The position numbers were made by a program, and so were the translations under genes. The notes beneath the pieces are model-generated. The model was not told where the DNA came from, did no database searches, and was given only the letters and a program-made list of their open reading frames with translations. 64,000 nt of DNA, from the NCBI RefSeq assembly GCF_904830955.1, contig NZ_LR882970.1. One strand, 5' to 3'. Positions 3,264-42,307 of this stretch are shown in pieces. The DNA is from Planktothrix tepida. GTDB taxonomy: Bacteria; Cyanobacteriota; Cyanobacteriia; Cyanobacteriales; Microcoleaceae. The number at the start of each line of letters is the position of its first letter. Position 1 is the first letter of the stretch.

Positions 3264-3359
3264 TTAAGGAATAATCAAGAAAATTCCCCAAGCGAGAAAA
3301 GACAAAATCAACAAAAAACTAACTCGCCAGTACAATCGCTCCCGTTCGTATTTTTGCAT
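3264..3359 (-). CDS. candidate small ORF, 31-aa hydrophobic peptide MQKYERERLYWRVSFLLILSFLAWGIFLIIP
   Basis: not in ORF track (short); ATG preceded by canonical AAGGAGA Shine-Dalgarno 9 nt upstream; single TM helix. Confidence 0.3.
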   Translation of the reverse strand: MQKYERERLYWRVSFLLILSFLAWGIFLIIP

Positions 3360-3375
3360 GGCTTAAAATCTCCTT

Positions 3376-3415
3376 AAAATCTAAGAAGAGTTGGGTTAAA
3401 GTTAATCACCCAACC
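3376..3415 (-). terminator. stem-loop GTTGGGT-N11-ACCCAAC followed on minus strand by UCUUCUUAGAUUUU; candidate terminator after gatB
   Basis: inverted repeat directly downstream of gatB stop, related in sequence to hairpin at 3206-3235. Confidence 0.35.
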
Positions 3416-3427
3416 TTCAGACGTTTC

Positions 3428-4918
3428 TTATTTTTTTAACTTTTCCCCTAAGAGTTGATTCGTGAGTTTAGGATCAGCTTTTCCTGACGTTTTCTTCATA
3501 ATTTGACCCACAAAAAACCCTTGAAGTTTAGTTTTTCCCGCATGATATTGTTCGAGTTCTTTGGGATTTTCGGCTAAAACTTGATCGATAATTTCTTCTA
3601 AAGCTTTAGGATCGGATAATTGAATTAATCCTTTCGCTTCCACTAAAGCTTTAGGAGAACCTCCTTTTGCCAATAATTCCGGTAAAATATCTTTAGCAAT
3701 TTTACCACTAATCGTTCCGGCTTCAATTAAGGCAATTAACTCCGCTAATTCTTGGGGTTTGAGGGCAATTTCAGTGATACTGCATTTTTCGTTTTTTAGA
3801 TAGGCGGTAATATCCCCCATAATCCAGTTTACCGCTTGTTTAATATTAGCACCTGCGGCAATAGTTGCTTCAAAATATTCAGAAACCGGACGATCATCCG
3901 TTAAAACACGAGTATCATAGGGGGATAATCCTAATTCTGTTTCATAGCGATGACGTTTGGCGGCTGGGAGTTCAGGTAATTGCGATTGCCAAGTTTTTAA
4001 TTGTTCAACAGACACTTCAATCGGGGGAAGATCGGGTTCAGGAAAATAGCGATAATCGCTTGATCCTTCCTTCGTTCTCATACTAATAGTTCGTTGACTT
4101 CCTTCTTCCCATAAGCGAGTTTCTTGAATAATTTTTTCTCCCGCTTCTATGGCTGCAATTTGCCGTTCTATTTCATGATCAATCGCCCGTTGAATGGCAC
4201 TAAAAGAGTTCATATTTTTAATTTCAACTTTCGTTCCAAACTCTTTTTGACCCACGGGACGCACGGAAATATTCACATCACAGCGCAGGGAACCTTCCTG
4301 CATATTGCCATCACTCACGCCTAAATACCGCATAATTCGACGCAATTCTTGGGCGTATTCAGCCGCTTCTTGTCCAGAACGAATATCCGGTTCAGACACA
4401 ATTTCAACTAAAGCAATTCCCGCCCGATTATAATCAACCATAGAATAGGTTGAACCGGAAAGGCGATCGCTTCCACCATGAACTAATTTCCCCGCATCTT
4501 CCTCCATGTGTAAGCGAGTAATGCCGATAATTTTGCGTCTTGAACTGCCATCTTCCTCAACAATTTCAATTTCTAATTGACCCTTTGCGGCAATCGGTAA
4601 ATCATATTGAGAAATTTGATAATTTTTAGGCAAATCAGGATAAAAATATTGTTTGCGATCAAATTTACTGTAAGCAGCAATTTCACAATTAAGGGCTAAC
4701 CCAGCTTTTACGGCATATTCTAAGACTTTTTCATTTAACACCGGGAGGACACCGGGTAATCCCATACAAATGGGATCAATATTCATATTGGGATCAGCCC
4801 CAAATTTCGTGGAAGAATTGGAGAAAATCTTAGTTTCCGTACTCAGTTGACAATGGGTTTCTAACCCAATAATCGCTTCATACTTCGTTGTAACAGGTGC
4901 AGTAGCGGTCATAGACAT
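3428..4918 (-). CDS. gatB: Asp-tRNA(Asn)/Glu-tRNA(Gln) amidotransferase subunit B
   Basis: 496 aa; N-terminal [10 protein letters not shown]...KIFS and overall GatB architecture incl. C-terminal GatB/YqeY domain. Confidence 0.93.
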
Positions 4919-5076: not shown

Positions 5077-6099
5077 ATGCCAATTTCAAATTCTTCCTTC
5101 GTATCATCAGAGGAGTACATCCGAGTTAACCCTCGCTTAACAATTGAAACTTTTCGGGAAAAATGCCCGGTTACGGCTGGAGAGGACGTGATCAAAGGGC
5201 TAACTCAAACTCCCAAAACCTTACCGCCTAAATATTTTTATGATGATCAGGGATCATTATTGTTTGAGAAAATTTGTGAGTTACCTGAATATTATTTAAC
5301 CCGCACAGAAACTAAAATTTTACAAGATTATGCCTCGGAAATTGCCCATTTAACAGGCCCTTGTGAAGTTGTAGAATTAGGAAGTGGGAGTTCTACAAAA
5401 ACTCGAATTCTATTAGACGCTTATCAAGAGTTAGGTCATCCCTTACATTATTTACCCATTGATATTAGTGGGGGAATTTTAGAACAAAGTGCCTATTCTC
5501 TCCTGGAAGATTATCCCACGCTGCATATTCATGGGATTGTTAGTACCTATGAAACAGCCTTGAAGCATCTCAATTCTTCTCCTTTACCATCACGAATGAT
5601 CGGTTTTATTGGGAGTACATTAGGCAATTTAAAACCCGAAGAATGCCATGTTTTTTTTGCCCATGTTGTTGAAGCGTTGCAGCCCGGAGATTATTTTTTA
5701 TTAGGGGTAGATTTACATAAATCTAAGTCGATTTTAGAACCTGCTTATGATGATAGTCAAGGGGTGACGGCTGCTTTTAACTTAAATATGTTGCGACATT
5801 TAAACCGTTTGTTTGAAGGAAATTTTAAGATTGAGCAATTTGAACATTTAGCCTTTTACAATGACACGAAGCATCAAATTGAAATGCACTTAAAAAGTTT
5901 GCGATCGCAAATCGTTGAACTTAAAACCCTGAATTTAACCCTTGAATTTGCAGAAGGGGAAACGATTCATACGGAAATTTCTCGTAAATTTCAATTTGAA
6001 CAAATTCAAGAGGAATTACAAACCCTAGGATTAGTTTCATTAAAGAATTGGACAGATGAAAATCAATATTTGGGTTTAATCTTGTATCAATTGCAATAG
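5077..6099 (+). CDS. egtD: L-histidine N-alpha-methyltransferase-like (EgtD/Methyltransf_33 family)
   Basis: YFYDDQGSLLFEKICELPEYYLTRTE motif and GSGSSTKT SAM-binding stretch typical of EgtD-type methyltransferases; no egtB adjacent. Confidence 0.65.
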   Translation: MPISNSSFVSSEEYIRVNPRLTIETFREKCPVTAGEDVIKGLTQTPKTLPPKYFYDDQGSLLFEKICELPEYYLTRTETKILQDYASEIAHLTGPCEVVELGSGSSTKTRILLDAYQELGHPLHYLPIDISGGILEQSAYSLLEDYPTLHIHGIVSTYETALKHLNSSPLPSRMIGFIGSTLGNLKPEECHVFFAHVVEALQPGDYFLLGVDLHKSKSILEPAYDDSQGVTAAFNLNMLRHLNRLFEGNFKIEQFEHLAFYNDTKHQIEMHLKSLRSQIVELKTLNLTLEFAEGETIHTEISRKFQFEQIQEELQTLGLVSLKNWTDENQYLGLILYQLQ

Positions 6100-25576: not shown

Positions 25577-26020
25577 ATGGCTGTTTCAGAAATCACTGAA
25601 AAATTGTTAGCCGCAAAAAAACATAAAGGAGTCACATTTTCTGATTTAGAACAACTATTGGGACGCGATGAAGTTTGGATTGCTGCTGTTATCTATCGGC
25701 AAGCTAGTGCTTCTTATGAAGAAGCCAAAAAACTGATTGAAGCGTTAGGTTTAAGTTCAGAATATATTGAAGCCTTGACTGATTATCCAGTAAAAGGATC
25801 ACTGGAGCCTGTGATTCCAACTGATCCCTTAATTTATCGATTTTATGAAATTATGCAAGTCTATGGAATGCCCCTCAAAAGTGTCATTCATGAAAAATTT
25901 GGAGATGGTATTATGAGCGCTATTGATTTTACCTTAGATGTGGATAAAATTGAAGATCCAAATGGTGATCGGGTTAAAGTCACGATGAATGGAAAATTCT
26001 TACCGTATAAAAAATGGTAA
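25577..26020 (+). CDS. cynS: cyanate hydratase (cyanase)
   Basis: 147 aa, full-length match to CynS N-terminal HTH-like and C-terminal catalytic domain ([17 protein letters not shown]). Confidence 0.9.
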
Positions 26021-26089
26021 TTTTTTGAATGGATCTCTGAGATTTCTCCTAGTTAAATACTGGGAGAAATTTTTGACTAAAATGTAATC

Positions 26090-26240
26090 CTATGATACAG
26101 TCAAGGATCTGAGTCGGTTCTAGCGGGGAACAGTCGCTAGAAGTAAGGGGAAAGTTTGGCGCAAATCCAACACTGTCCCGCAACTGTGATGAGAGTCTTG
26201 ATCTCTAAGTCAGAATACCCACCGAAATCAGATTATTCTT
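26090..26240 (+). ncRNA. cobalamin (B12) riboswitch
   Basis: AAGGGGAAAGTTTGGCGCAAATCCAACACTGTCCCGCAACTGTGA matches core consensus (AAGGGAA..GGTG.AAATCC..AC.GTCCCGC.ACTGT.A); B12-box-like AAGTCAGAATACCCACC near 3' end; upstream of hupE. Confidence 0.75.
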
Positions 26241-26261
26241 TCACACATCTGCGCGGTACAG

Positions 26262-26942
26262 ATGATGTTTATGATGTTCAAATCATTTCAGCGTTTTTGT
26301 CAGGATTTCTCGCTACAAAATAATAATCGAGTCTTTTTTTTAGGCATCAGTTTATTATTACTGTTGATGGCGCAACCTGCCACAGCCCATCATGCCTTTG
26401 GCGGTCGAATTCCGAAGAATTTTTTTGAAGGATTTTTATCAGGACTCGCTCATCCCATCATTGGAATTGATCACTTTGCCTTTATTCTTTCCATTGGTTT
26501 AATTGCAGCTAGTATTGTGGGTGGAATTTGGATAATTGTCGGGTTTCTAGGGGCTGCTATGTTAGGGACAGCAATCCATTTAATGAGTTTTAATTTGCCG
26601 GTTCCTGAAGTGGCGATCGCCCTATCGGTGATTACCATTGGCATTTTATTAGTGCTGAAAAAACAATTACCCCTAGCCGTATTAATCAGTTTAGCAAGCG
26701 TAGCGGGTTTATTTCATGGCTATGCCTATGGAGAATCAATTATGGGGGCAGGAATGATGCCTTTAATCTCCTATTTGGCAGGATTTACTTTGATTCAATT
26801 GGGAATAGCGGGAGCGACGATGAAACTCGCTCAATCCTTCCAACAAACCTTAGAAACTAGCAAATATTCCCTGATCAAATATTCAGGTTTTGCTGTTGTA
26901 GCGATTGGGGTAATTGCTTTATCTAGTGCAATTACAGGCTAA
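26262..26942 (+). CDS. hupE: HupE/UreJ family metal (Ni/Co) transporter
   Basis: signal peptide, HPxxGxDH motif (LAHPIIGIDH), 6 TM. Confidence 0.8.
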   Translation: MMFMMFKSFQRFCQDFSLQNNNRVFFLGISLLLLLMAQPATAHHAFGGRIPKNFFEGFLSGLAHPIIGIDHFAFILSIGLIAASIVGGIWIIVGFLGAAMLGTAIHLMSFNLPVPEVAIALSVITIGILLVLKKQLPLAVLISLASVAGLFHGYAYGESIMGAGMMPLISYLAGFTLIQLGIAGATMKLAQSFQQTLETSKYSLIKYSGFAVVAIGVIALSSAITG

Positions 26943-27030
26943 TTTCCCTTAAGTATATTTCAGTTTTACTGCTGTAGAGATGTTAAATTAAACGTCTCTA
27001 CTTTTTACCTTTAATCTTTAACTCAATCTT

Positions 27031-28068
27031 ATGTCTGCCAAAATTCCTGTTACCGTCATTACTGGATTTTTAGGAAGTGGAAAAACCACCACCATTCGTC
27101 ATTTATTACAAAATAATCAAGGTCGTCGCATAGCCGTTTTAGTGAATGAATTTGGAGAAGTCGGTATTGATGGAGAATTGATCCGTTCTTGTCAAGTTTG
27201 CGATGATGAAACCCCAGAAGTCAACTTAGTAGAACTCACCAATGGTTGTTTATGTTGTACCGTGCAGGAAGAGTTTTTTCCCGCTATGCAAGAACTTCTA
27301 AAACGACGAGATAAAATCGATCATATTGTGATTGAAACCTCTGGGTTAGCATTACCAAAACCCTTAGTTCAAGCCTTCCGATGGCCGGAAATTCGCACGG
27401 GTGCAACAGTTGATGGTGTTATAACCGTAGTAGACTGTGAAGCCATTGCTAAGGGGACGTTAGTGGGGGATATTGAAGCAGTTGAAGCCCAACGTCAAGC
27501 TGATCCTAATTTAGATCATGAAACCCCTATTGAAGAATTATTTGAAGATCAACTCGCCTGTGCGGATTTAATTTTATTAACAAAAACCGATCATGTTGAT
27601 GCCGAAACTCAACAGAAAGTTGAAACCTGGTTAAAACAAGAATTGCGTGAGGGCGTTAAAATTGTTTCTTGTCAACAGGGAAATATTCATCCTGATGTGA
27701 TTTTAGGGTTTAATTCAGCCGTTGAGGATAATTTAGAAGCCCGTCCCAGTCATCATGACACTGAAGAAGAACACGAACATGATGATAATATTAATTCAGT
27801 TCCTGTGATTTTAACCCAAGACTTTGAACCTCAAGACTTAATTGAACGGTTAAAAACAATAGTTAAACAACAGGAAATTTACCGGATTAAAGGGTTTGTT
27901 TCGGTTCCCCATAAACCGATGCGGTTAGTTTTACAAGGAGTTGGCGATCGCATTGAAACCTTTTATGATCGTCTCTGGAAACCAACAGAATCTCGTCAAA
28001 CCCAATTAGTATTTATTGGGGAAAATTTACAAGCTTCTGAAATTAAAAATGCCGTTTTAGGGAATTAA
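27031..28068 (+). CDS. COG0523 (CobW/HypB/UreG-type G3E) GTPase metallochaperone
   Basis: Walker A GFLGSGKTT, GCLCC metal motif, His/acidic stretch HHDTEEEHEHDD, C-terminal CobW_C. Confidence 0.85.
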   Translation: MSAKIPVTVITGFLGSGKTTTIRHLLQNNQGRRIAVLVNEFGEVGIDGELIRSCQVCDDETPEVNLVELTNGCLCCTVQEEFFPAMQELLKRRDKIDHIVIETSGLALPKPLVQAFRWPEIRTGATVDGVITVVDCEAIAKGTLVGDIEAVEAQRQADPNLDHETPIEELFEDQLACADLILLTKTDHVDAETQQKVETWLKQELREGVKIVSCQQGNIHPDVILGFNSAVEDNLEARPSHHDTEEEHEHDDNINSVPVILTQDFEPQDLIERLKTIVKQQEIYRIKGFVSVPHKPMRLVLQGVGDRIETFYDRLWKPTESRQTQLVFIGENLQASEIKNAVLGN

Positions 28069-28316
28069 AACCTATTTTTAGGGTTGATAGGGGCGGGTTA
28101 AAGTTAACTTTTGATCCTCAAAAATCATTGATTAACACCTGCCCTAATTTTGTGCCAAAATTTGTAAATCATTAGGATCGGTAGTCTTCAAGATTAAGAA
28201 TAGCCCCAAACTTAAATTATAGGTCAGGGAACCAGTAGACGTTACACTGCGTTACAACACGATAGAATATAAGGTGATCTAGCCAGAAACCATATTGACA
28301 AGGAGATAACCAACGC

Positions 28317-30344
28317 ATGGGCAAAGTAGTCGGCATTGACTTGGGGACAACGAACTCTGTGGTTGCGGTCATGGAGGGCGGTAAACCCGTTGTGATTGCT
28401 AACTCTGAAGGGATGCGAACCACCCCCTCCGTCGTTGGGTTTACCAAGGAAGGAGAACGCATCGTGGGACAGATGGCTAGACGTCAGGCGGTTTTGAACC
28501 CCCAAAACACCTTTTATGGGGTCAAACGGCTGATGGGTTGTCGCTATTCTGACCTGTCTCCCGCCTCCAAACGGGTTCCCTACACGATGCGACGGGATGA
28601 AACGGATAATATTAGAATCAAATGTCCCAGAGTTAATAAAGATTTTGCGCCGGAAGAAATTTCGGCAATGATATTAAAAAAATTAGTTGAAGAAGCGACT
28701 CGGTATTTAGGAGAAGAAATTACCGGGGCTGTGATTACGGTTCCTGCCTATTTTAATGATTCTCAAAGACAAGCCACTAGAGATGCCGGACGCATTGCCG
28801 GATTAGAGGTTAAACGCATTTTAAATGAACCGACTGCGGCTTCTTTAGCTTATGGTTTAGAACGCAGAGATTATGGCACAATTTTAGTGTTTGATTTGGG
28901 GGGCGGAACCTTTGATGTCTCGGTTTTAGAGGTGGGAGAAGGGGTATTTGAAGTCAAGTCTACCAGTGGAGATACGCAACTGGGAGGAACGGATTTTGAT
29001 CAGAAAATTGTCGATTGGTTAGCAGAACAATTTCTATCAGAAGAAGGAGTAGATTTAAGACGCGATCGCCAATCGTTACAACGGTTAACAGAAGCGGCTG
29101 AAAAAGCAAAAATTGAGCTTTCTGGCGTTGGAGTTACGGATATTAATTTACCCTTTATTGCTGCTACAGAAGACGGCCCAAAACATTTAGAAACCCGCTT
29201 AACCAGAGGAGAATTTGAGGGATTATGTGGGGATTTAATTCAACGGTTACGTCGTCCGGTGAAACAAGCGTTAGCGGATGCGGGATTAACTTCTAATGAT
29301 ATTGATGATGTGATTTTAGTCGGCGGTTCTACTCGAATGCCAATGGTGCAACAATTAGTTAGAACGTTAATTGATTTAGAACCGAATCAAGGGGTGAATC
29401 CTGATGAAGTAGTGGCGGTTGGTGCGGCAATTCAAGCGGGAATTTTAGCCGGAGATGTACGAGATGTATTATTATTAGATGTTACTCCCTTATCGTTAGG
29501 ATTAGAAACCATTGGGGGAGTCATGAAAAAATTAATTCCCCGTAATACAACTATTCCAGTGCGTCGTTCTGATATTTTTTCAACTTCAGAAAATAACCAA
29601 ACTTTGGTAGAAGTTCATATCTTACAAGGAGAACGGGAATTAGCCGTTGATAATAAATCTTTAGGTCGGTTTAAGTTAACTGGAATTCCGCCCGCACCGC
29701 GAGGAGTTCCACAAATTCAAGTCGCTCTTGATATTGATGCGAATGGTATTTTACAAGTTACCGCCTTAGATAAAACCACCGGACGAGAACAAAGTGTTGT
29801 AATTCAAGGTGCTTCTACCTTATCTCAAGATGAAGTTAATCGCATGATTCGAGATGCGGAAAAATATGCAGAAGTTGACCGTTTACAACGAGAACGAGTC
29901 GAAAAACGCAACCGCGCCCAAGCTTTAACCTATCAAGCCGAACGACAATTAAGAGAAGTTGCTTTAGATTATGGAATGCAATTTGCTCAACGTCAACGGT
30001 CAAGAATTGAAACCTTAATTCGCTCTTTAAGAGATAGTTTAGAACGAGATGATGACCGAGGAATTGATCAAATTAGTGTGGATTTACAAGATGCTTTATA
30101 TGAGTTAAGTCGGGAAGTTTCTGTGTTTGCAACAGAGGATGATGAGGATGATTTATTTGGTTCAATTCGTCGAACCTTTTCCGGTGAAAAACGTCGAGTT
30201 GATCCCTATGAACCTCCGACTCGCAGTTATTCTCGATATGAACCCCGCACCAGCAGTGGCGGTAGTTTAGGTGGAGGTGTATCTCGGACTCGTCGCTATT
30301 CTCCCAGTGATAATTGGGATGATGATGATGATGATTGGCTGTAA
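28317..30344 (+). CDS. dnaK: molecular chaperone DnaK (Hsp70) paralog with extended Ser/Arg/Asp-rich C-terminus (DnaK3-like)
   Basis: [16 protein letters not shown], full NBD+SBD; 675 aa with C-terminal tail ending [11 protein letters not shown]. Confidence 0.95.
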
Positions 30345-30348
30345 CCTT

Positions 30349-30382
30349 AGAAACCCGGTTTCTTTTAGAAACCGGGTTTCTG
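30349..30382. terminator. 33-bp near-perfect palindrome AGAAACCCGGTTTCT-TTT-AGAAACCGGGTTTCT between dnaK and dnaJ-like gene
   Basis: 15-bp stem, 3-nt loop possible; same 15-mer as at 16791/16825. Confidence 0.5.
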
Positions 30383-35418: not shown

Positions 35419-36141
35419 TTAATATTGTTCAACTCCTGGGGGAGTAAAGCGAATTTCGATACGTCTTCTTGTTTCATCAGAAGCACGATTTTGCGACGCA
35501 TATTGTCCTGAAGGTAAAAATAATTGTGCGGCTGAATAAGCTCTAAATTTTAACCCCTTTAAACGACCTTGTTCTTGAATAGCTTGGAGTTTTTTAACAA
35601 CTGCTAAAGAGCGCATTAATCCTAAATCAGCATTGGAACCGGGTTTGAGATTTTTAACAGGTTGGTTCCCCTGTGCAACTTGTTCTAAGATTTGATCTAA
35701 ATTACTAGCAGGATTAAAGGTTTCTTGACCATCAGTATGTCCAATTACATCCACTACATAACCTTGATAAACTTTAGAAAATTCCTCTAATTTTTCCACC
35801 ACATTCCCTTCAATAAAAATTCGCAACCCTTCCGGTAAATCTGCCTTACCTGTCTCAAATTTTAAAGATCGCCCCTGTGCATCTCGATCAGAATCTTTAA
35901 TCACAATGACTGGTGGAGCTTTTAATCGTTCAATTTCGTTTTTTAATGAACCAACTGTTAATTCTAAGCCTTTAATTTTCTGATCTTTTTCTTTTGAATT
36001 AGAAGTTAATAACGATGATTTAACAATGGCTAACAATAAAAACAAGCTCATAATTAAAAAAGCATTAGACATTAAATCTGTAAATGCTTGCCAGACATTC
36101 AAATCTTCCGATGAATTTTTAATTTGAGTCGGACGACGCAT
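35419..36141 (-). CDS. MotB/OmpA-family protein (N-terminal TM with conserved Asp, C-terminal peptidoglycan-binding OmpA-like domain); ZorB-like
   Basis: WQAFTDLMSNAFLIMSLFLLL MotB plug/TM motif; C-terminal GHTD...RRRIEIRF OmpA_C signature. Confidence 0.8.
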   Translation of the reverse strand: MRRPTQIKNSSEDLNVWQAFTDLMSNAFLIMSLFLLLAIVKSSLLTSNSKEKDQKIKGLELTVGSLKNEIERLKAPPVIVIKDSDRDAQGRSLKFETGKADLPEGLRIFIEGNVVEKLEEFSKVYQGYVVDVIGHTDGQETFNPASNLDQILEQVAQGNQPVKNLKPGSNADLGLMRSLAVVKKLQAIQEQGRLKGLKFRAYSAAQLFLPSGQYASQNRASDETRRRIEIRFTPPGVEQY

Positions 36142-36275
36142 AATTTTAAACCTTTAATAATAATAATTACAAAACTTACCAACTTGTACCCAAGAAACCG
36201 GGTAACTAATATGAAAACCTGAACTCAGGATCAATCTCCTGATCTAGCCGAGAATCTCCAGCATCAGTCCTAAAT

Positions 36276-37847
36276 TTATTTACTTTCCCAAAATTTTGGT
36301 TTATTTTTCTTAATTCCCGGATTACCGCTTTGTTCTTTTAAGAGTTTAAGTACCTGAGATAAATCAGATTTCATCTCAATAATATACTTAATATTAGGTT
36401 TAATTGCTGCTTCTAATTTATCCGCTAAGACTTGTGAATAGGACTGACTACTATTTGTTTGTTCTTTAATGAGCTTATTCATCATTTTACTTAAAGATTC
36501 TAGTTCAAAATTCACTGTATTTGTATAACTATTAAGGGTTTTAACTAAGGTTTCTAATTGTTTATGAATACCTTCTAAATGATCGGATTTATCAATAAGT
36601 TTGTTTTGGATATTCTCTAACGTTTGAGAACTTAACTCCAAGCTTTTTCCTCCTTGTTGCAGTTGAGGAATAATTTCAACTAGGGATTGTTGATTAATTT
36701 GATTTAACTCTAAAACTTGTAAGGAACTTTGATTAAGTTCACTTAATTTTGTTTCCGTTTTTAATAACTGCTCTGTAAAGATCTGAAGTTGATTTAATAT
36801 TGTTTCCAAAGATTTAACCGTTTGAAATAAACCGAATGCTGAGTCAGAAAAATTCTTTTGATTCTCTCCAAAATCAGTAGCGATTATTGATAATTGTTTA
36901 GGAAATTCACTTTGTTCAAAACCTTGAGCAACTTGTTCTAATTTATCAGCCGTTGTGTTACTCACTTGTACCGCATTTGTAAAACTTTCTGTGGCGGTTT
37001 GAAACTCTCTAGCTCCCCTTTCTAACGTTCCTGTAGCATTGGATAATTGACTATAGACTTTTAGAGCTAATTCACTCGCTTCTACATTCGCTTTTGTAAT
37101 TTGATGAATATTATCTCTCATGGCAGATTCCACCGCATCTCTAACAGTAATACCAAATCGATCTAAAAAATCTTTAAATTCACTCGACATTCCTTTAACA
37201 ACTTTATCCAACCGAGTTTGACCATTTAAGGATGAATAATAAATATTATCGAGGTAATGTTCTAAAGAAACCGTTAAACGATATTTCGCTAGACTCGTAT
37301 TCCATAAAAAGTTTAAAACAGTTAATAATGCACTACACAATAACCCAGCTAAACTGGTAATAAAAGCGATCGCCATTCCTTCTAGGGGTTGTTTTAATTC
37401 CTCTACTAACTGACTAACATCCGTTGCTTGACTTTGACTAATAGTTTGACTCAAAGAACCCAAATTGACCGTAATTCCAATAAAGGTTCCAATTAATCCA
37501 AAAGCCAGGAGTAAATTCGGAATAATTCGACACCAATATTCAATTTGTTCGCAGGATTTCCCTAAAACCTTTTCTTGGCTGTAGGCTTGATCAATCAAAG
37601 CCGCCGTGTTCACTTGTTCTAAATTTTGGCTGGATTCTGCAAAACTCTGTTCTAAAACTTGTACAATCGCAGGCGGGAGTTCAAGCTCCCGTTTATTGAT
37701 AATCTGATAAATTTTATTCGCTTGAGTGGTTAAATGTTGATAAAGATTCCAGCGATAATAGAGGGTAATGATCGAGGGAATAAACACAAATATCCCGATC
37801 AAAATGATTAACAAAGGCGGTAAAGGAGGAAAAGAAGGAAACAACAT
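36276..37847 (-). CDS. MotA/TolQ/ExbB proton-channel family protein with ~330-aa C-terminal coiled-coil tail; ZorA-like
   Basis: AFGLIGTFIGI and MAIAFITSLAGLLCSALLTVLNF match MotA/ExbB TM2-TM3 signatures; residues ~200-523 heptad-rich Q/E/L/K. Confidence 0.75.
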   Translation of the reverse strand: MLFPSFPPLPPLLIILIGIFVFIPSIITLYYRWNLYQHLTTQANKIYQIINKRELELPPAIVQVLEQSFAESSQNLEQVNTAALIDQAYSQEKVLGKSCEQIEYWCRIIPNLLLAFGLIGTFIGITVNLGSLSQTISQSQATDVSQLVEELKQPLEGMAIAFITSLAGLLCSALLTVLNFLWNTSLAKYRLTVSLEHYLDNIYYSSLNGQTRLDKVVKGMSSEFKDFLDRFGITVRDAVESAMRDNIHQITKANVEASELALKVYSQLSNATGTLERGAREFQTATESFTNAVQVSNTTADKLEQVAQGFEQSEFPKQLSIIATDFGENQKNFSDSAFGLFQTVKSLETILNQLQIFTEQLLKTETKLSELNQSSLQVLELNQINQQSLVEIIPQLQQGGKSLELSSQTLENIQNKLIDKSDHLEGIHKQLETLVKTLNSYTNTVNFELESLSKMMNKLIKEQTNSSQSYSQVLADKLEAAIKPNIKYIIEMKSDLSQVLKLLKEQSGNPGIKKNKPKFWESK

Positions 37848-37909
37848 AAAATATCCTCAAGATTGAACATGAGCTTAGATTCAAATCAATGTAACTAAAT
37901 TAAAATGAG

Positions 37910-40900
37910 TTAACAACCATATTTCCGTAGAATTTCTTCTTTCTCAAATTCATATCCTTTTTGAGTAATGAACCCCTGATCTAATTTTTGTTTTAGCTGC
38001 CTTAATTTTGCCTCTAAACTGTCATCACTTTGGTTAAAATCTCTGGAATTTTCTCCACGCTTTACTAAAGCGGCAGAATCGTCATTAACCGATGTTGGTA
38101 AACTTCCAGTCTTAGTTAGACTTTCCTGAATTTTTCGACGAAAACGATTAATAACTCCTTCATGTCCTAAATTATTAATTGTACCCGGAGTCCCCACAAC
38201 CGTTGATTTATAAAGATAATTAGGATTAGATTCAGGTAAATTATCCACATAATCCACAAATTGCTGTAATCTGGGTAAATATTGACTTTTCCAGAGATCA
38301 GGATTTTGACGAATCTGATTAATTTCCTCCTCTAATAACTCGTTTAACGTTTTCGTCATTTCTCGGTGATTCGCTAGTTCTTCTAACGCTTGATTCCAAA
38401 TTGGGTTCAGTTCTGCTGTATAATAATAGTCTCGTAAATTATCGTAATATTGAAACTCTAAGCCTTGATTTTTAGGATTTTTAACAATTAACTGAAATGC
38501 TAAACAAGGATAGAAAACATCTTCCAATTCTTCCATGAGTCTAGCATCTGGGGGGATAATATCAGTAAAGGGGATCTGATAATCAGAATGACAAGTTGAG
38601 CCATCTTTATTTTGTTCTCGGATATAATGATTTCTGATTTCTTCTAAACCATTAATCAACCGTAAAGGAAACCCACCATATTCCCGAACAATTAAAATTT
38701 GATCTTCAGCTTGAGTCGGTTTTAAAGCCGTTGGGTCGATTCCCAAATCACGAGTCAGAGTCATTTTAAACTGATTTACTTCTACCTCATCGGTATCTTT
38801 AAATCCAATAAATTCTTTTCGTTTATCCGAAAGATTAGAAAAATAAGGATCACTCACATTTAAACGTAATAAAGGTTCTGCCTGCTCAATAATTTGTCCT
38901 AAACGGGTAGGACGAATTGACCCAGAATATTTTTGAATAAAACGCTTAATCACAGATTTAACAATTTGGTTACTCCGAGAACCAAATTCACCATCTATTT
39001 TTTGATCAATTTCTGTTTTCAGTTGCTCTCCAGTGGTACGATTAATTAAATAGCAGATCGATTCTCCTACCCCAGATGCCTCTGTAATATCTTTACTCAC
39101 TAACACCAATGCAGAGCGAAACTCTAAATCAGGTAATAAGGTTTGATAACATTCTTCAATATCTTCTTGAGCAAAAATAGCTTCTCCACTCATTTCATTA
39201 AAATTAGAATTTATCAGATCATTTTGTTCTTTCTCATAATTCGTTTTTAAATTTTCGATCATCCGGCTAAAGGTGGCAACTTCAGTCGAACAATCTCTAA
39301 CATACTTTTGCAAATCATTGACGATTTTTAATGTTTCTTGAGTTACTGCTAATTTGAAATTATGCTGAATTAACTGCATAATACTTTGAACAACGTTTCT
39401 CGCTAATCTCTGAATATCGGCATTTTTACGATTCAGTATGGGGAGTTCAATTCTTTGCTCTATCTCATCCATGTTCTGTTCTAAATCTCGCAATTTTTTC
39501 TCTAAGTCTTCATTTTTTTTCATTCCTTCCCCTTGACTAATTTCTTCCTCTAACTGACGTTGATAGGTGTTTAATTCTGTTTGCATCGCCTCTAACCAAT
39601 CACGAACACTTTTAGTCGAAAATTTGGGATTGCTAGGGGTCATTAATTCCTCAATAAATTCATTAATATGATTTTTCAATTGTTGAGCGATGAGCGGTTG
39701 TACCTGCATTAACCGAGTTAACCAAATTCCTCTTGTTGTTTCCGTTTCTCCCGGCAGAACTTTTCTGAACTGTTCTCGTAATTCTCGTAATAAGTTGTTT
39801 TTTAAACTGAGCCGATCTTCACTATTTCTACACTCATTAATTTTTTGAATTAATTTCTCTCTGAATTTAGTTAAGGTCGTAGAAAAGTTTTTGCTCCCTT
39901 CTTGAACGCCTCCAGCAAGTCGTTCTTTAAACCCATCCCGTTGGATTAAATCGCTATACCAATTATATTTAATCAAAAATTGTTCAATAATTAATTGAGG
40001 ATCGGGACTTTGACCTTCTCCATTTAACCAAAAATTAACCAATTTTAAACTAATTCGATTTAAGGCAATTTTTACGATAATTTCACGAGGAAAATAAATC
40101 GCAGCCAAGCCAAAGGTTAAATATCCTTGAGTATTAGGACGGGGATGATTATCCGATTGAATTAAATGGTTTAGTAAATTATCCCGCATTCCTTTAGCAA
40201 CAGGGGCTAATTCTCCGATAAAATCTAACGCGATTTTATGGGCAATTACATTACATAATTTTTGTTGTTCTAAGATTGTATATTCACCGTTCGTTTCATT
40301 AGAAATTAAATAAGTATAATCAAATGGGGCGCGAGGTTCCTGAACAATTACCAAATTTTGCATATCATAACAAGCTTCAAATCGAGTCCCCGCACTGCTA
40401 TAATAATTGAGTTCTTTTAAGGCTGCATAAGTATTAGCATTCATATAGGACGCATTGCTGTATAACTGTGGACTTACCACTAAATATCCGAGTAATTGCG
40501 TGCCTTTATCTCCATAGGATTTCCTTAAACTATAAGCAACATCTAAAAACATTCCGCTTCCTGTACCGCCACAGAGGGAACCAATCACAAAAATATTTAA
40601 TCCGGGTTCAAGTTTTAATCTGGCTTTCAGTAAGGTTGCTTCATGACCCATTGTCCGTTTTGCTGCGGTTTCAATGACAGTTTTGATCTTTTGATAATTA
40701 TGAAAAAACGCTAATCTTCCCACAGGTCGAATTCCTTTTGCTCCTTCTTCAACGGCTCTAATATTACGAAGTAATTGAGGCGGAAACCAGCGAGAAATAT
40801 GATCAAACGGCCCAGAACGATTGGATTTAGAACGCTGTTCTACACCTCGCACAAAATTGGTTACTTCTGCGGAAGTTAAAATGGCATTTACTTTTTCAGA

Positions 40901-41137
40901 ATCTCGAAAACTTAAATCAACACCCCGATAGGTATTACCTGTTTTTAAACTGGCGGACTGAGTGGCAGTTTTATCTGTGTCAATATGAACAAAACTAACA
41001 ATTGGTAGTTCTGTTAAATCTCCATATTTTTCTACAATTAACCGCCGAATTCGCATTAAAACATCTCGTCCTGTTCCTCCTAATCCGATACAAATTGTGC
41101 GTTGAACTCCTTGCAGTTGATAATCATTAGCTTGCAT
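37910..41137 (-). CDS. 1075-aa tubulin/FtsZ-superfamily-like GTPase domain protein (Tubulin_2-like) with long helical C-terminal region and SHOCT-like C-terminus
   Basis: GLGGTG (T1-like) at aa 18-23 and GSLCGGTGSG (tubulin signature [SAG]GGTG[SA]G-like T4) at aa ~188-197; C-terminal LEAKLRQLKQKLDQGFITQKGYEFEKEEILRKY resembles SHOCT. Confidence 0.6.
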   Translation of the reverse strand: MQANDYQLQGVQRTICIGLGGTGRDVLMRIRRLIVEKYGDLTELPIVSFVHIDTDKTATQSASLKTGNTYRGVDLSFRDSEKVNAILTSAEVTNFVRGVEQRSKSNRSGPFDHISRWFPPQLLRNIRAVEEGAKGIRPVGRLAFFHNYQKIKTVIETAAKRTMGHEATLLKARLKLEPGLNIFVIGSLCGGTGSGMFLDVAYSLRKSYGDKGTQLLGYLVVSPQLYSNASYMNANTYAALKELNYYSSAGTRFEACYDMQNLVIVQEPRAPFDYTYLISNETNGEYTILEQQKLCNVIAHKIALDFIGELAPVAKGMRDNLLNHLIQSDNHPRPNTQGYLTFGLAAIYFPREIIVKIALNRISLKLVNFWLNGEGQSPDPQLIIEQFLIKYNWYSDLIQRDGFKERLAGGVQEGSKNFSTTLTKFREKLIQKINECRNSEDRLSLKNNLLRELREQFRKVLPGETETTRGIWLTRLMQVQPLIAQQLKNHINEFIEELMTPSNPKFSTKSVRDWLEAMQTELNTYQRQLEEEISQGEGMKKNEDLEKKLRDLEQNMDEIEQRIELPILNRKNADIQRLARNVVQSIMQLIQHNFKLAVTQETLKIVNDLQKYVRDCSTEVATFSRMIENLKTNYEKEQNDLINSNFNEMSGEAIFAQEDIEECYQTLLPDLEFRSALVLVSKDITEASGVGESICYLINRTTGEQLKTEIDQKIDGEFGSRSNQIVKSVIKRFIQKYSGSIRPTRLGQIIEQAEPLLRLNVSDPYFSNLSDKRKEFIGFKDTDEVEVNQFKMTLTRDLGIDPTALKPTQAEDQILIVREYGGFPLRLINGLEEIRNHYIREQNKDGSTCHSDYQIPFTDIIPPDARLMEELEDVFYPCLAFQLIVKNPKNQGLEFQYYDNLRDYYYTAELNPIWNQALEELANHREMTKTLNELLEEEINQIRQNPDLWKSQYLPRLQQFVDYVDNLPESNPNYLYKSTVVGTPGTINNLGHEGVINRFRRKIQESLTKTGSLPTSVNDDSAALVKRGENSRDFNQSDDSLEAKLRQLKQKLDQGFITQKGYEFEKEEILRKYGC

Positions 41138-41158
41138 GATAAATCCCTTTTGGTTAGT

Positions 41159-42307
41159 TTATTTTTGAATTTTAATGGTTAATCTGTAGTTTTTGGGAGG
41201 TTTAGGATTAGGGCAATTAAAATTTATCCTACTTCTGGTTATTTGGATTTTTTGATCGACAATTTTGTCTTGATATTCAATCCGGCTATTGTTCGTCGGT
41301 TCTAAATAAAGTTTTTCTCCTTTTCTGACTAAATAAGCCCGAACTTCTGCTCCAGGTAAATCAATGGTATCCTGACAACCAGATTCATATTCACCAATGG
41401 CAATTCTTTGATGATTACCGAGAGAGCAGGTTTGATCTGCTACCTGATCATCATCATCAAAATTAACCATCAGTTTCCATTTTTTATTCAAACGATAAAT
41501 TTTAATTCCCATCCCGACACTAGCAAGAATTAAAATTCCTAAAATTAATCCGGGTAGCCATAACTGTTTCCATAAATAAGGAGAAACTAAACAAGTTTCT
41601 TTCTGTCCGGGGGTAGGAGTACAGAACTCTTGAACATTCGGAGGAATATCAACAATTGTTAGGTTATATTGTCGCTGTTCTTGAGTTTTAATCGGAAGCG
41701 ATCGCTGATTTAAAGGTAATTGATTTAACCACTCTTGGCGCTGTTGTGTTTCTGGAGAAGTTGCTATTCGGAAAGGACTGTCTGCTGGGGTTTCCGTCCA
41801 TTCTTCAGAGGTAGCAGGGGATTTTGTAAATAACGGTGCATCGGTAATCCAAACAATCGATTGCGGTTTAATCGGTTGATTCTGGGTTAAACGACATTGA
41901 TTGAGATCTGCTAAACCCTGATAAATCGTTAACTCAGCTTTTTGAATATCGGTATTTTGTAATCTCAGGTCAGGCTGAAAGGTAATTAATTGTAAAATCT
42001 TTTCTACATCGGCTTTCCCTTTAAACTGAATTGCAGTTTCTAAAGTTAAAGGGTTGATCTCAGGTGTTGAAGGGTTAGTTTTTGTAGCAAAAGGCACAAC
42101 ATAAACGGTGTCTCCTGATTTTAAGCTATCTTCAACAATTTGACGTAAACGCAAATGACCTTCATCATTCAAACCGACGCTTTCCGTTAGGTCAATCGCC
42201 AGTACCACATCCCGTCCGCCATGTAGACGAGTGACTGATTCCAAACCGATTTTCTGGAAAGGCGTCAACGGTTGACCTGGTGCGACTGGGGTACAAATCT
42301 CACTCAA
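41159..42307 (-). CDS. vWA-domain protein with single TM helix and C-terminal FHA-like domain
   Basis: VVLAIDLTESVG MIDAS-like DxTxS; TM LWLPGLILGILILASVGMGI; C-terminal GAEVRAYLVRKGEKLYLEP...NNSRIEY FHA-like. Confidence 0.55.
   Translation of the reverse strand: MSEICTPVAPGQPLTPFQKIGLESVTRLHGGRDVVLAIDLTESVGLNDEGHLRLRQIVEDSLKSGDTVYVVPFATKTNPSTPEINPLTLETAIQFKGKADVEKILQLITFQPDLRLQNTDIQKAELTIYQGLADLNQCRLTQNQPIKPQSIVWITDAPLFTKSPATSEEWTETPADSPFRIATSPETQQRQEWLNQLPLNQRSLPIKTQEQRQYNLTIVDIPPNVQEFCTPTPGQKETCLVSPYLWKQLWLPGLILGILILASVGMGIKIYRLNKKWKLMVNFDDDDQVADQTCSLGNHQRIAIGEYESGCQDTIDLPGAEVRAYLVRKGEKLYLEPTNNSRIEYQDKIVDQKIQITRSRINFNCPNPKPPKNYRLTIKIQK

Follow-up and report, generated by a model that had tools for sequence, protein, structure and literature searches.

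The hupE-cobW locus

In a 64,000-nucleotide stretch of the Planktothrix tepida genome (contig NZ_LR882970.1; here called the window), a cobalamin riboswitch directly precedes hupE, which encodes a HupE/UreJ permease, and cobW, which encodes a COG0523/G3E GTPase. All three lie on the + strand, as do the other window features described below unless stated otherwise, and they very probably constitute a translational OFF switch through which vitamin B12 (B12, cobalamin) would govern a cobalt supply operon. An earlier note on this DNA had proposed a cobalamin riboswitch in the hupE leader from two strings, AAGGGGAAAGTTTGGCGCAAATCCAACACTGTCCCGCAACTGTGA and a B12-box-like AAGTCAGAATACCCACC, and both were found, at positions 26145-26189 and 26207-26223, respectively. 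When the whole window was scanned with cmscan against Rfam 15, the check that the note had called for, a match to RF00174 (Cobalamin) was obtained at 26099-26240, scoring 53.1 bits where the gathering threshold is 31.5 (E = 2.2e-10) and extending untruncated over model positions 1 to 189 of 189. The E value was 4e-12 if the search was limited to positions 25950-27100, and no other Rfam family reached its threshold in the 64 kb. These results demonstrate that the leader contains a cobalamin riboswitch, a standard member of a regulatory arrangement that has been described since 2003.

The first gene after the riboswitch, hupE (26262-26942), encodes a secondary metal permease of 226 amino acids, predicted to be an importer of cobalt, that matches PF04955 with 131.3 bits against a gathering threshold of 23. 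Residues 64 to 71 read HPIIGIDH, and H64, P65, G68, D70, and H71 of this motif are invariant among 24 homologues. HPxxGxDH, located in the first transmembrane helix, is the signature of the HupE/UreJ family (PMC7689651), so both the domain match and the motif place the protein in that family. The translation also contains a signal peptide ending in AQPATA, a mature N terminus beginning HHAFGG, and the motif FHGYAYGE. In the public record LR882967.1, hupE encodes 223 amino acids and starts 9 nt downstream, at 26271. The start at 26262 is the likely one because its AUG, which lies in the 3' arm of the regulatory hairpin P13 described below, is conserved across lineages, and the start in the record is probably misannotated.

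The second gene, cobW (27031-28068), encodes a protein of 345 amino acids with domains PF02492 and PF07683. The earlier note had called it a CobW-like GTPase next to a HupE/UreJ gene, and a firmer statement can now be made, since it matches the TIGR02475 equivalog model for true CobW (COG0523 subgroup 12) with 501.8 bits against a cutoff of 332.1. Other COG0523 models fell far under their cutoffs (ZigA, 164.5 versus 600; PRK11537, which is YjiA-like, 159.2 versus 361). CobW serves the CobNST chelatase as a Co(II) chaperone (PMC7689651), and its published hallmarks are a P-loop, a CxCC motif, and a His-rich stretch with at least four His residues (PMC2770081, PMC7689651). All three are present in the window protein: the P-loop is GFLGSGKTT, the CxCC motif is GCLCCT, and four His residues fall in the His/Asp-rich stretch HHDTEEEHEHDD.

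Upstream of the riboswitch lies cynS (25577-26020; TIGR00673, PF02560), which encodes cyanase and is followed by an intrinsic terminator at 26036-26076 (-20.4 kcal/mol; z = -5.6 versus shuffled sequences), which ends in UUUUUGA. This terminator isolates the riboswitch unit from transcription upstream. A promoter-like site follows at 26073-26101, with TTGACT, a 17-nt spacer, and TGnTACAGT (9 of 12 consensus matches, with an extended -10 TG); it predicts a transcript start at approximately 26107, the first base of P1, as a match to the consensus only and not as evidence of function. Genes for cyanase, one of them putative, recur next to hupE in two of the loci surveyed below. In L001, a 147-amino-acid open reading frame (ORF) at 3334-3777, directly upstream of hupE, is the putative equivalent of cynS, and in L041, a distant locus that lacks a riboswitch, cynS (2522-2965) lies upstream of hupE and overlaps its start. 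No functional link between these neighbors is known.

Structure of the aptamer

The cmscan alignment assigned the elements of the RF00174 consensus along the RNA. P1 is formed by 26106-26118 pairing with 26221-26234 (segments AUCUGA/UCAGAU and UCGGU/ACCGA), and it encloses the P2 arm (26119-26141; UCUAGCG...CGCUAGA), P3 (26148-26150 pairing with 26218-26220; GGG/CCC), P4 (26154-26171), P5/L5 (26174-26182; a stem of 2 bp with the loop UCCCG at 26176-26180), P6 with a short P7 hairpin (26183-26214), and the B12 box (26207-26223). The conserved core, a four-way junction (P3 to P6) with the B12 box, is present: the GGG/CCC of P3 as well as P4, P5, P6, and AGUCAGAAUACCCACC fall on the consensus throughout. 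An unconstrained minimum-free-energy (MFE) fold gave P1, P2, P4, and the short P7 hairpin. When 36 homologous leaders were aligned and folded with RNAalifold, P2, P3, P4, P6, and P7 were recovered, with compensatory changes in 14 of the 23 pairs. The P2 arm had such changes at all six of its pairs, and a G-C to A-U swap is already present in P2 among close relatives. P1 and P5 were missed by RNAalifold in these 36 leaders, because MAFFT misaligned the variable 5' ends and because P5 has only 2 bp.

The structural subtype of the aptamer was judged from the peripheral elements. Class Cbl-I requires a long P7-P11 extension of P6, which folds back on the binding pocket and makes the RNA selective for adenosylcobalamin (AdoCbl), and class Cbl-II lacks the loop-stem-loop (P2 arm) between P1 and P3 (PMC7367189). 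The window RNA fits neither description: the 57-nt consensus insert of the model at the P6 extension is reduced to 4 nt, leaving a P6 that bears only a hairpin of about 5 bp, and the P2 arm is present and covarying. In homologues the element borne by P6 is likewise a simple hairpin, variable in length. Because it combines a P2 arm with the absence of the P7-P11 extension, the aptamer is likely a hybrid like that of Bacillus subtilis yvrC (yvrC/btuF), an atypical switch that also joins a Cbl-I-like P2 loop-stem-loop to a short hairpin in place of P7-P11 (Chan 2020, PMC7367189). The likeness is one of secondary structure. The yvrC riboswitch differs in that it is transcriptional, is found in a Firmicute, and lies upstream of a B12 transporter, and its binding of AdoCbl, methylcobalamin (MeCbl), and hydroxocobalamin (HyCbl) was measured (PMC7367189), whereas promiscuity is conjecture for the window RNA. 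One may conjecture, by this analogy, that the aptamer is a promiscuous sensor suited to pseudocobalamin. Pseudocobalamin is the form made by cyanobacteria.

The expression platform

A single-stranded linker of 12 nt, J1/13 (UAUUCUUUCACA, 26234-26245), lies between P1 and the regulatory hairpin; in most homologous loci it is about 7 to 18 nt long, and the length of this linker influences regulation in the env8 riboswitch (PMC5028336). The hairpin itself, P13/L13 (26246-26264), has the sequence CAUCUG-CGCGGUA-CAGAUG with a stem of 6 bp and was seen in the MFE fold. Its loop, L13, holds both a Shine-Dalgarno-like site and the bases complementary to L5, and the 3' arm of P13 ends with the AUG of hupE (26262-26264). 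The hairpin is invariant among close relatives, in which the codons after the AUG vary. Under a strict rule, 55 of 59 aptamers were scored as having this hairpin after them. Of the other four, two carry a version of 3 bp and two carry a variant at a greater distance downstream. The consensus is AUCUG-CGAGGUA-CRGAUG, in which the GAGG of the loop is a Shine-Dalgarno sequence five bases before the AUG of the 3' arm.

The proposed kissing interaction between L5 and L13 consists of the pairs C26177:G26256, C26178:G26255, C26179:G26253, and G26180:C26252, with C26254 unpaired; that is, C2, C3, C4, and G5 of L5 pair with G5, G4, G2, and C1 of L13, leaving L13 position 3 free. In a fixed-length alignment of 32 distinct L5/P13 rows, extracted by hand under rules that required the P13 stem and constrained the kissing positions only loosely, all four pairs were 100% paired, whereas slid controls fell to 21 to 70% paired. 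One pair covaries, being CG in 26 rows and AU in 6. Loci with L5 UCCCG always have L13 CGAGGUA, CGCGGUA, or CGAGGCA, and the 11 loci with L5 UACCG always have L13 CGAGUUA, which is a compensatory change from C:G to A:U. A contiguous 4-bp register using C26181 was dropped: this base belongs to the P5 stem, and only the register with one bulged L13 base accommodates the covarying pair.

A kissing loop of this kind, linking aptamer to platform and leaving an L13 nucleotide unpaired, is expected of a cobalamin riboswitch (RF00174, clan CL00101). All classes of these riboswitches share an L5-L13 kissing loop (PMC7367189), and the kissing loops always have at least one unpaired L13 nucleotide (PMC5028336). 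In the env8 riboswitch, the ribosome-binding site (RBS) is in L13, and the cobalamin-dependent kiss blocks ribosome loading and also reduces mRNA abundance (PMC5028336). The class IIa env8HyCbl RNA (Johnson 2012; Polaski 2016, PMC5028336) is the nearest model for the platform, with its L5-L13 kiss, RBS in L13, short J1/13, unpaired nucleotides on the L13 side, and translational repression. It differs in that env8 lacks the P2 arm and matches the AdoCbl-variant family, whereas the window RNA has the arm and matches RF00174, and in that the env8 kiss contains two unpaired purines and an A-G pair where the window kiss has a single unpaired base (C or A). Judged by this analogy, the platform is of a known type, the L5-L13 kissing-loop translational OFF switch.

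In the window clade, AUCUG...CGGU occurs both in the 5' strand of P1 (AUCUGAGUCGGU) and in P13, across its 5' arm and loop (AUCUGCGCGGU), and the 3' strand of P1 (26221-26233) can pair either with the P1 5' strand or with P13 at 26247-26257. Folding 26215-26300 alone gave the latter pairing, which opens P13. This possible antisequestor is not conserved, as the P1 sequences differ in other lineages.

Conservation of the riboswitch-hupE-cobW arrangement

We assembled 82 related cyanobacterial hupE loci, with HupE identities of 42 to 82%, from a metagenome scan with an alignment of 24 HupE sequences and from two genome loci. Within the species collection, the nearest genomes were metagenome-assembled ones of a Planktothrix and of a member of the Oscillatoriales. 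Riboswitch presence was scored by Rfam scans of all 82 at the gathering threshold, in place of regular-expression cores. In 58 loci, RF00174 preceded hupE in the same orientation; 10 of the 24 negative loci have less than 450 nt of upstream sequence, so the informative fraction is 58 of 72. Among loci with sufficient downstream sequence, a cobW gene in the same orientation came after hupE in 36 of 46 that carry the riboswitch and in 1 of 11 that do not. At 95% nonredundancy the proportions were 33 of 42 and 1 of 10 (Fisher P = 1e-4, uncorrected for phylogeny). The linked CobW proteins have identities of 61 to 96%, and in several lineages the hupE-cobW spacer is only 5 to 45 nt.

A third member of the module recurs in 10 of the 82 loci. 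It encodes a Cys-rich DUF1636 protein (PF07845) of about 130 to 160 amino acids and lies between the riboswitch and hupE in L006 (2566-2976), L013 (388-873), L021 (2406-2891), and L043 (approximately 2522-2890) and between hupE and cobW in L008 (3818-4264), L009 (4213-4617), L012 (3425-3832), L014 (4210-4608), L016 (3706-4086), and L017 (4019-4423). No DUF1636 gene was found when the 64-kb window was searched for one. In L006, the AUG of the P13 3' arm opens an ORF of about 10 codons at approximately 2197-2229 (MIVKTALQQSL, read by eye), with the DUF1636 gene about 370 nt and hupE about 800 nt after this AUG, and the switch there may act through this short upstream ORF.

The 88-nt spacer between hupE and cobW in the window contains a palindromic hairpin at 26974-27001 (GUAGAGAUGUU-AAAUUA-AACGUCUCUAC, followed by UUUUUACC). 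Its GTAG head recalls repetitive extragenic palindromic (REP) elements, to which we take it to be akin. The window has no second copy of GTAGAGAYG. Palindromes of 27 to 28 nt with the form GTAG...CTAC occupy the hupE-cobW spacer of many loci from several distinct lineages and also occur elsewhere in the loci; copies in the spacer were located in L001 (1782-1809), L003 (3705-3732), L004 and L005 (3690-3716), L030 (2677-2704), L042 (1018-1045), L047 (1832-1859), L048 (4665-4692), L061 (3620-3647), L069 (1153-1180), and L081 (3631-3658). In 461 kb, 9 of the 18 copies with a perfect stem were in the hupE-cobW spacer. There are at least two families of these palindromes: GTAGAGAYRTT... is found in the window, L002, L004, and L005, and GTAGGGGCAATTCATGAATTGCCCCTAC is found in L003, L047, L061, and L069, with close variants in L001, L042, L062, L068, and L081. 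The identical 28-mer GTAGGGGCAATTCATGAATTGCCCCTAC thus occurs in distantly related loci. The spacer hairpin may be a dispersed REP-like element that stabilizes the hupE segment of the mRNA or attenuates cobW. A match of this hairpin to snoR74 in the Rfam search of 25950-27100 (24.7 bits versus a threshold of 44; E = 0.34) was below threshold and was taken as chance.

In three loci without a riboswitch, hupE adjoins a gene for a COG0523 GTPase that is only about 35% identical to CobW (L055, 4657-5637; L059, 15-848; L071, 2023-2994). HupE permeases and G3E GTPases may therefore be paired for other metals as well.

Probable regulation of cobalt supply and alternative explanations

The following sequence of events would account for the arrangement. 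Transcription would start at the promoter just after the cynS terminator, and the first 130 nt or so of the transcript would fold as a B12 aptamer. With a corrinoid bound, L5 (UCCCG) would kiss L13, so that the Shine-Dalgarno-like loop and the arm containing the AUG were both engaged and ribosomes could not load on hupE. When B12 is scarce the kiss would fail, the 6-bp hairpin alone would not stop ribosomes, and HupE would be made and import Co(II). The cobW gene begins after a spacer of 88 nt in the same orientation and most likely shares the hupE mRNA, and CobW in its GTP form would take Co(II) and pass it to cobaltochelatase. Expression of cobW would probably drop together with that of hupE through the lower stability of the untranslated mRNA, and the REP-like hairpin would probably lower cobW relative to hupE.

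For HupE, this agrees with what has been published, and the idea of a cobalt importer under B12 feedback, which the earlier note had put forward, is not new. Cyanobacterial HupE proteins under an adenosylcobalamin riboswitch are considered cobalt transporters (PMC7689651, PMC4284471, PMC2667541, PMC2211319). The arrangement predicted by Rodionov and colleagues, as reviewed in these four papers, is alike in RNA family, first gene, phylum, and proposed logic, in which B12 represses the import of cobalt, and shows no essential difference from that of the window, which adds cobW after hupE; those reviews mention only hupE. The HupE of Synechocystis sp. strain PCC 6803 (Slr2135) shares the family, the phylum, the HPxxGxDH motif, and the link to B12 and methionine synthesis; its role as a cobalt importer has experimental support (Hoffmann 2006, cited in PMC7689651 and PMC4284471), and the hupE mutant was rescued by cobalt or methionine (PMC7689651, section 5.1.1.5; PMC4284471). 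The additions made here are incremental: the kissing-loop platform with its start codon, the hybrid aptamer architecture, and a quantified linkage of riboswitch, hupE, and cobW, with or without DUF1636.

The earlier note had also extended B12 feedback to a dedicated metallochaperone. We infer, with good support, that hupE is under riboswitch control, and this part of the proposal stands; the part concerning cobW is drawn from conserved synteny. Coregulation of cobW by the switch is somewhat probable. According to Haas et al. (2009, PMC2770081), the cobW orthologues of cyanobacteria neither cluster with B12 genes nor come under a B12 riboswitch, which is not generally true, judging by the gene order in the loci surveyed here. 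In proteobacteria, riboswitch-controlled cobW is the rule, as in cobW-cobN clusters and in the TonB-receptor/NiCoT/CobW operon of Novosphingobium, in which CobW shares an operon with a cobalt transporter (PMC2770081; PMC7689651, section 5.1.1.1). The window resembles these in having cobW after a cobalamin riboswitch and beside a transporter and differs in that the transporter is HupE rather than NiCoT or a TonB receptor and in that cobN is not adjacent. No published description of the hupE-cobW pairing was found in the literature searched. Placing CobW in many cyanobacteria within a B12 riboswitch module (riboswitch, hupE, REP-like hairpin, cobW, and DUF1636 in some lineages), with the recurrent hairpin setting the ratio of the two products, is a reading to which, taken as a whole, we give even weight.

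Several observations weigh against the interpretation given above. The kissing-loop covariation is one compensatory change in one clade and probably a single evolutionary event, because the UACCG loci form one clade in the HupE tree, and the P13 counts are biased because the extraction rules required the stem. L13 of the window clade is CGCGGUA and not CGAGGUA, which makes for a weak Shine-Dalgarno sequence. A cobalt-specific subgroup of HupE has been assigned by a B12-riboswitch or B12-gene context together with a separate phylogenetic branch (Zhang 2009); the context is present here in the riboswitch and cobW, but in a rough neighbor-joining tree of 80 cyanobacterial homologues the riboswitch-less proteins do not form a single branch, and such a subgroup is not demonstrated by sequence because these members are interspersed. 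In addition, cobW is absent downstream in 9 of the 42 nonredundant riboswitch loci, and two sites in the window could let cobW escape the switch: the spacer hairpin, which with 11 bp and the tail TTTTTACC outranks every other terminator-like site in 25900-28500, and a weak promoter-like site at 26931-26959 with 9 of 12 consensus matches. We know of no Rho in cyanobacteria, and because the switch would be translational, polarity on cobW would then need mRNA decay.

These last points are the substance of an alternative in which the switch controls hupE only, the hairpin and U-run at 26974-27006 terminate the transcript, and the promoter-like site in the 3' end of hupE drives cobW regardless of B12. 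In its favor, the hupE-cobW spacer folds with z = -3.0, translational control of hupE need not affect a downstream cistron, and the generalization of Haas et al. would favor it as well. However, only about 29 nt separate the hairpin from the ATG of cobW, so a cobW promoter would need to precede the hairpin, and read-through of the hairpin is required in any case; the U-runs after the equivalent hairpins of other loci are not conserved. The tight linkage of cobW to riboswitch-bearing hupE (33 of 42 versus 1 of 10), with spacers down to 5 to 21 nt elsewhere, also argues against separate control. So do an Acaryochloris transcriptome sequencing table, in which the adjacent HupE (AM1_5965) and CobW (AM1_5964) rise together, and env8, in which repression also reduces mRNA abundance (PMC5028336). 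Where DUF1636 stands between the switch and hupE (L006, L013, L021, and L043), the effect of the switch must reach past the first cistron if hupE is still controlled. On balance, control of hupE only is rather unlikely.

Two other explanations were given far less weight. That the switch acts mainly by transcription termination, with P13 as the terminator, could be argued from the scan that lists 26246-26264 as terminator-like (six pairs; tail ATGTTTATGA) and from the many Firmicutes cobalamin riboswitches that are transcriptional (PMC7367189), but the stem has only 6 bp and its tail is coding sequence. The tails of homologues are not U rich (ATATATAAAC, GAAGGTAAAA, AGAGCAAATT), and this mechanism is unlikely because no U-run after P13 is conserved among the 59 aptamer loci. 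The conserved parts are instead the loop GAGG and the AUG of the 3' arm, the signature of RBS sequestration, and we consider termination at P13 very improbable. Even less probable is that HupE imports nickel for urease or hydrogenase, or some other metal, with the B12 element being incidental or regulating something else. The HupE/UreJ family was first linked to nickel uptake in hydrogenase and urease clusters, and the riboswitch-less homologues interspersed with riboswitch-bearing ones in the rough tree stand in other metal contexts. Yet the riboswitch is fused directly to the hupE start codon and is conserved in 58 loci, the neighboring gene encodes the cobalt chaperone CobW rather than UreG or HypB, no urease or hydrogenase genes occur within 10 kb, and the published Synechocystis phenotype points to cobalt.

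A translational switch acting on cobalt supply would bear on several questions. Many waters contain little cobalt, cyanobacteria rank among the major producers of (pseudo)cobalamin, and throttling of cobalt import and chaperoning by the end product would be useful for modeling B12 supply. For annotation, the analysis provides a correctly bounded regulatory RNA and a two-gene cobalt supply unit in a bloom-forming type of cyanobacterium. The presence of cobW after riboswitch-controlled hupE in most of the sampled filamentous and other cyanobacterial loci corrects the older generalization and, if the module reading holds, would mean coordinated synthesis of importer and chaperone, possibly with direct hand-over of cobalt. 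The hupE-cobW unit would be a simple system in which to ask whether a permease and a G3E metallochaperone cooperate. The present understanding of riboswitches and cobalt homeostasis is unchanged by these results. A role of B12-riboswitch-regulated HupE in cobalt import by cyanobacteria had been published before.

Other features of the window and the surveyed loci

The scanned ORFs of the window included no other B12 (cob) genes. HIP1 palindromes (GCGATCGC) are present in the window and fit a cyanobacterium. Downstream of cobW, dnaK and dnaJ follow in the same orientation. Between them, immediately behind the stop codon of dnaK, there is a perfect 15-nt inverted repeat at 30349-30381 (AGAAACCCGGTTTCT/AGAAACCGGGTTTCT), probably an intercistronic hairpin. 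On the opposite strand (-), 37910-41137 encodes a protein of 1,075 amino acids with an N-terminal Tubulin_2 domain (PF13809, 366 bits), flanked by ORFs of 240, 523, and 382 amino acids that have no Pfam match; together they form an uncharacterized cluster at 35419-42307 (-). Finally, the metagenomic locus L057 carries a group I intron (RF00028, 70.8 bits) at 5246-5583, about 1.6 kb downstream of hupE.

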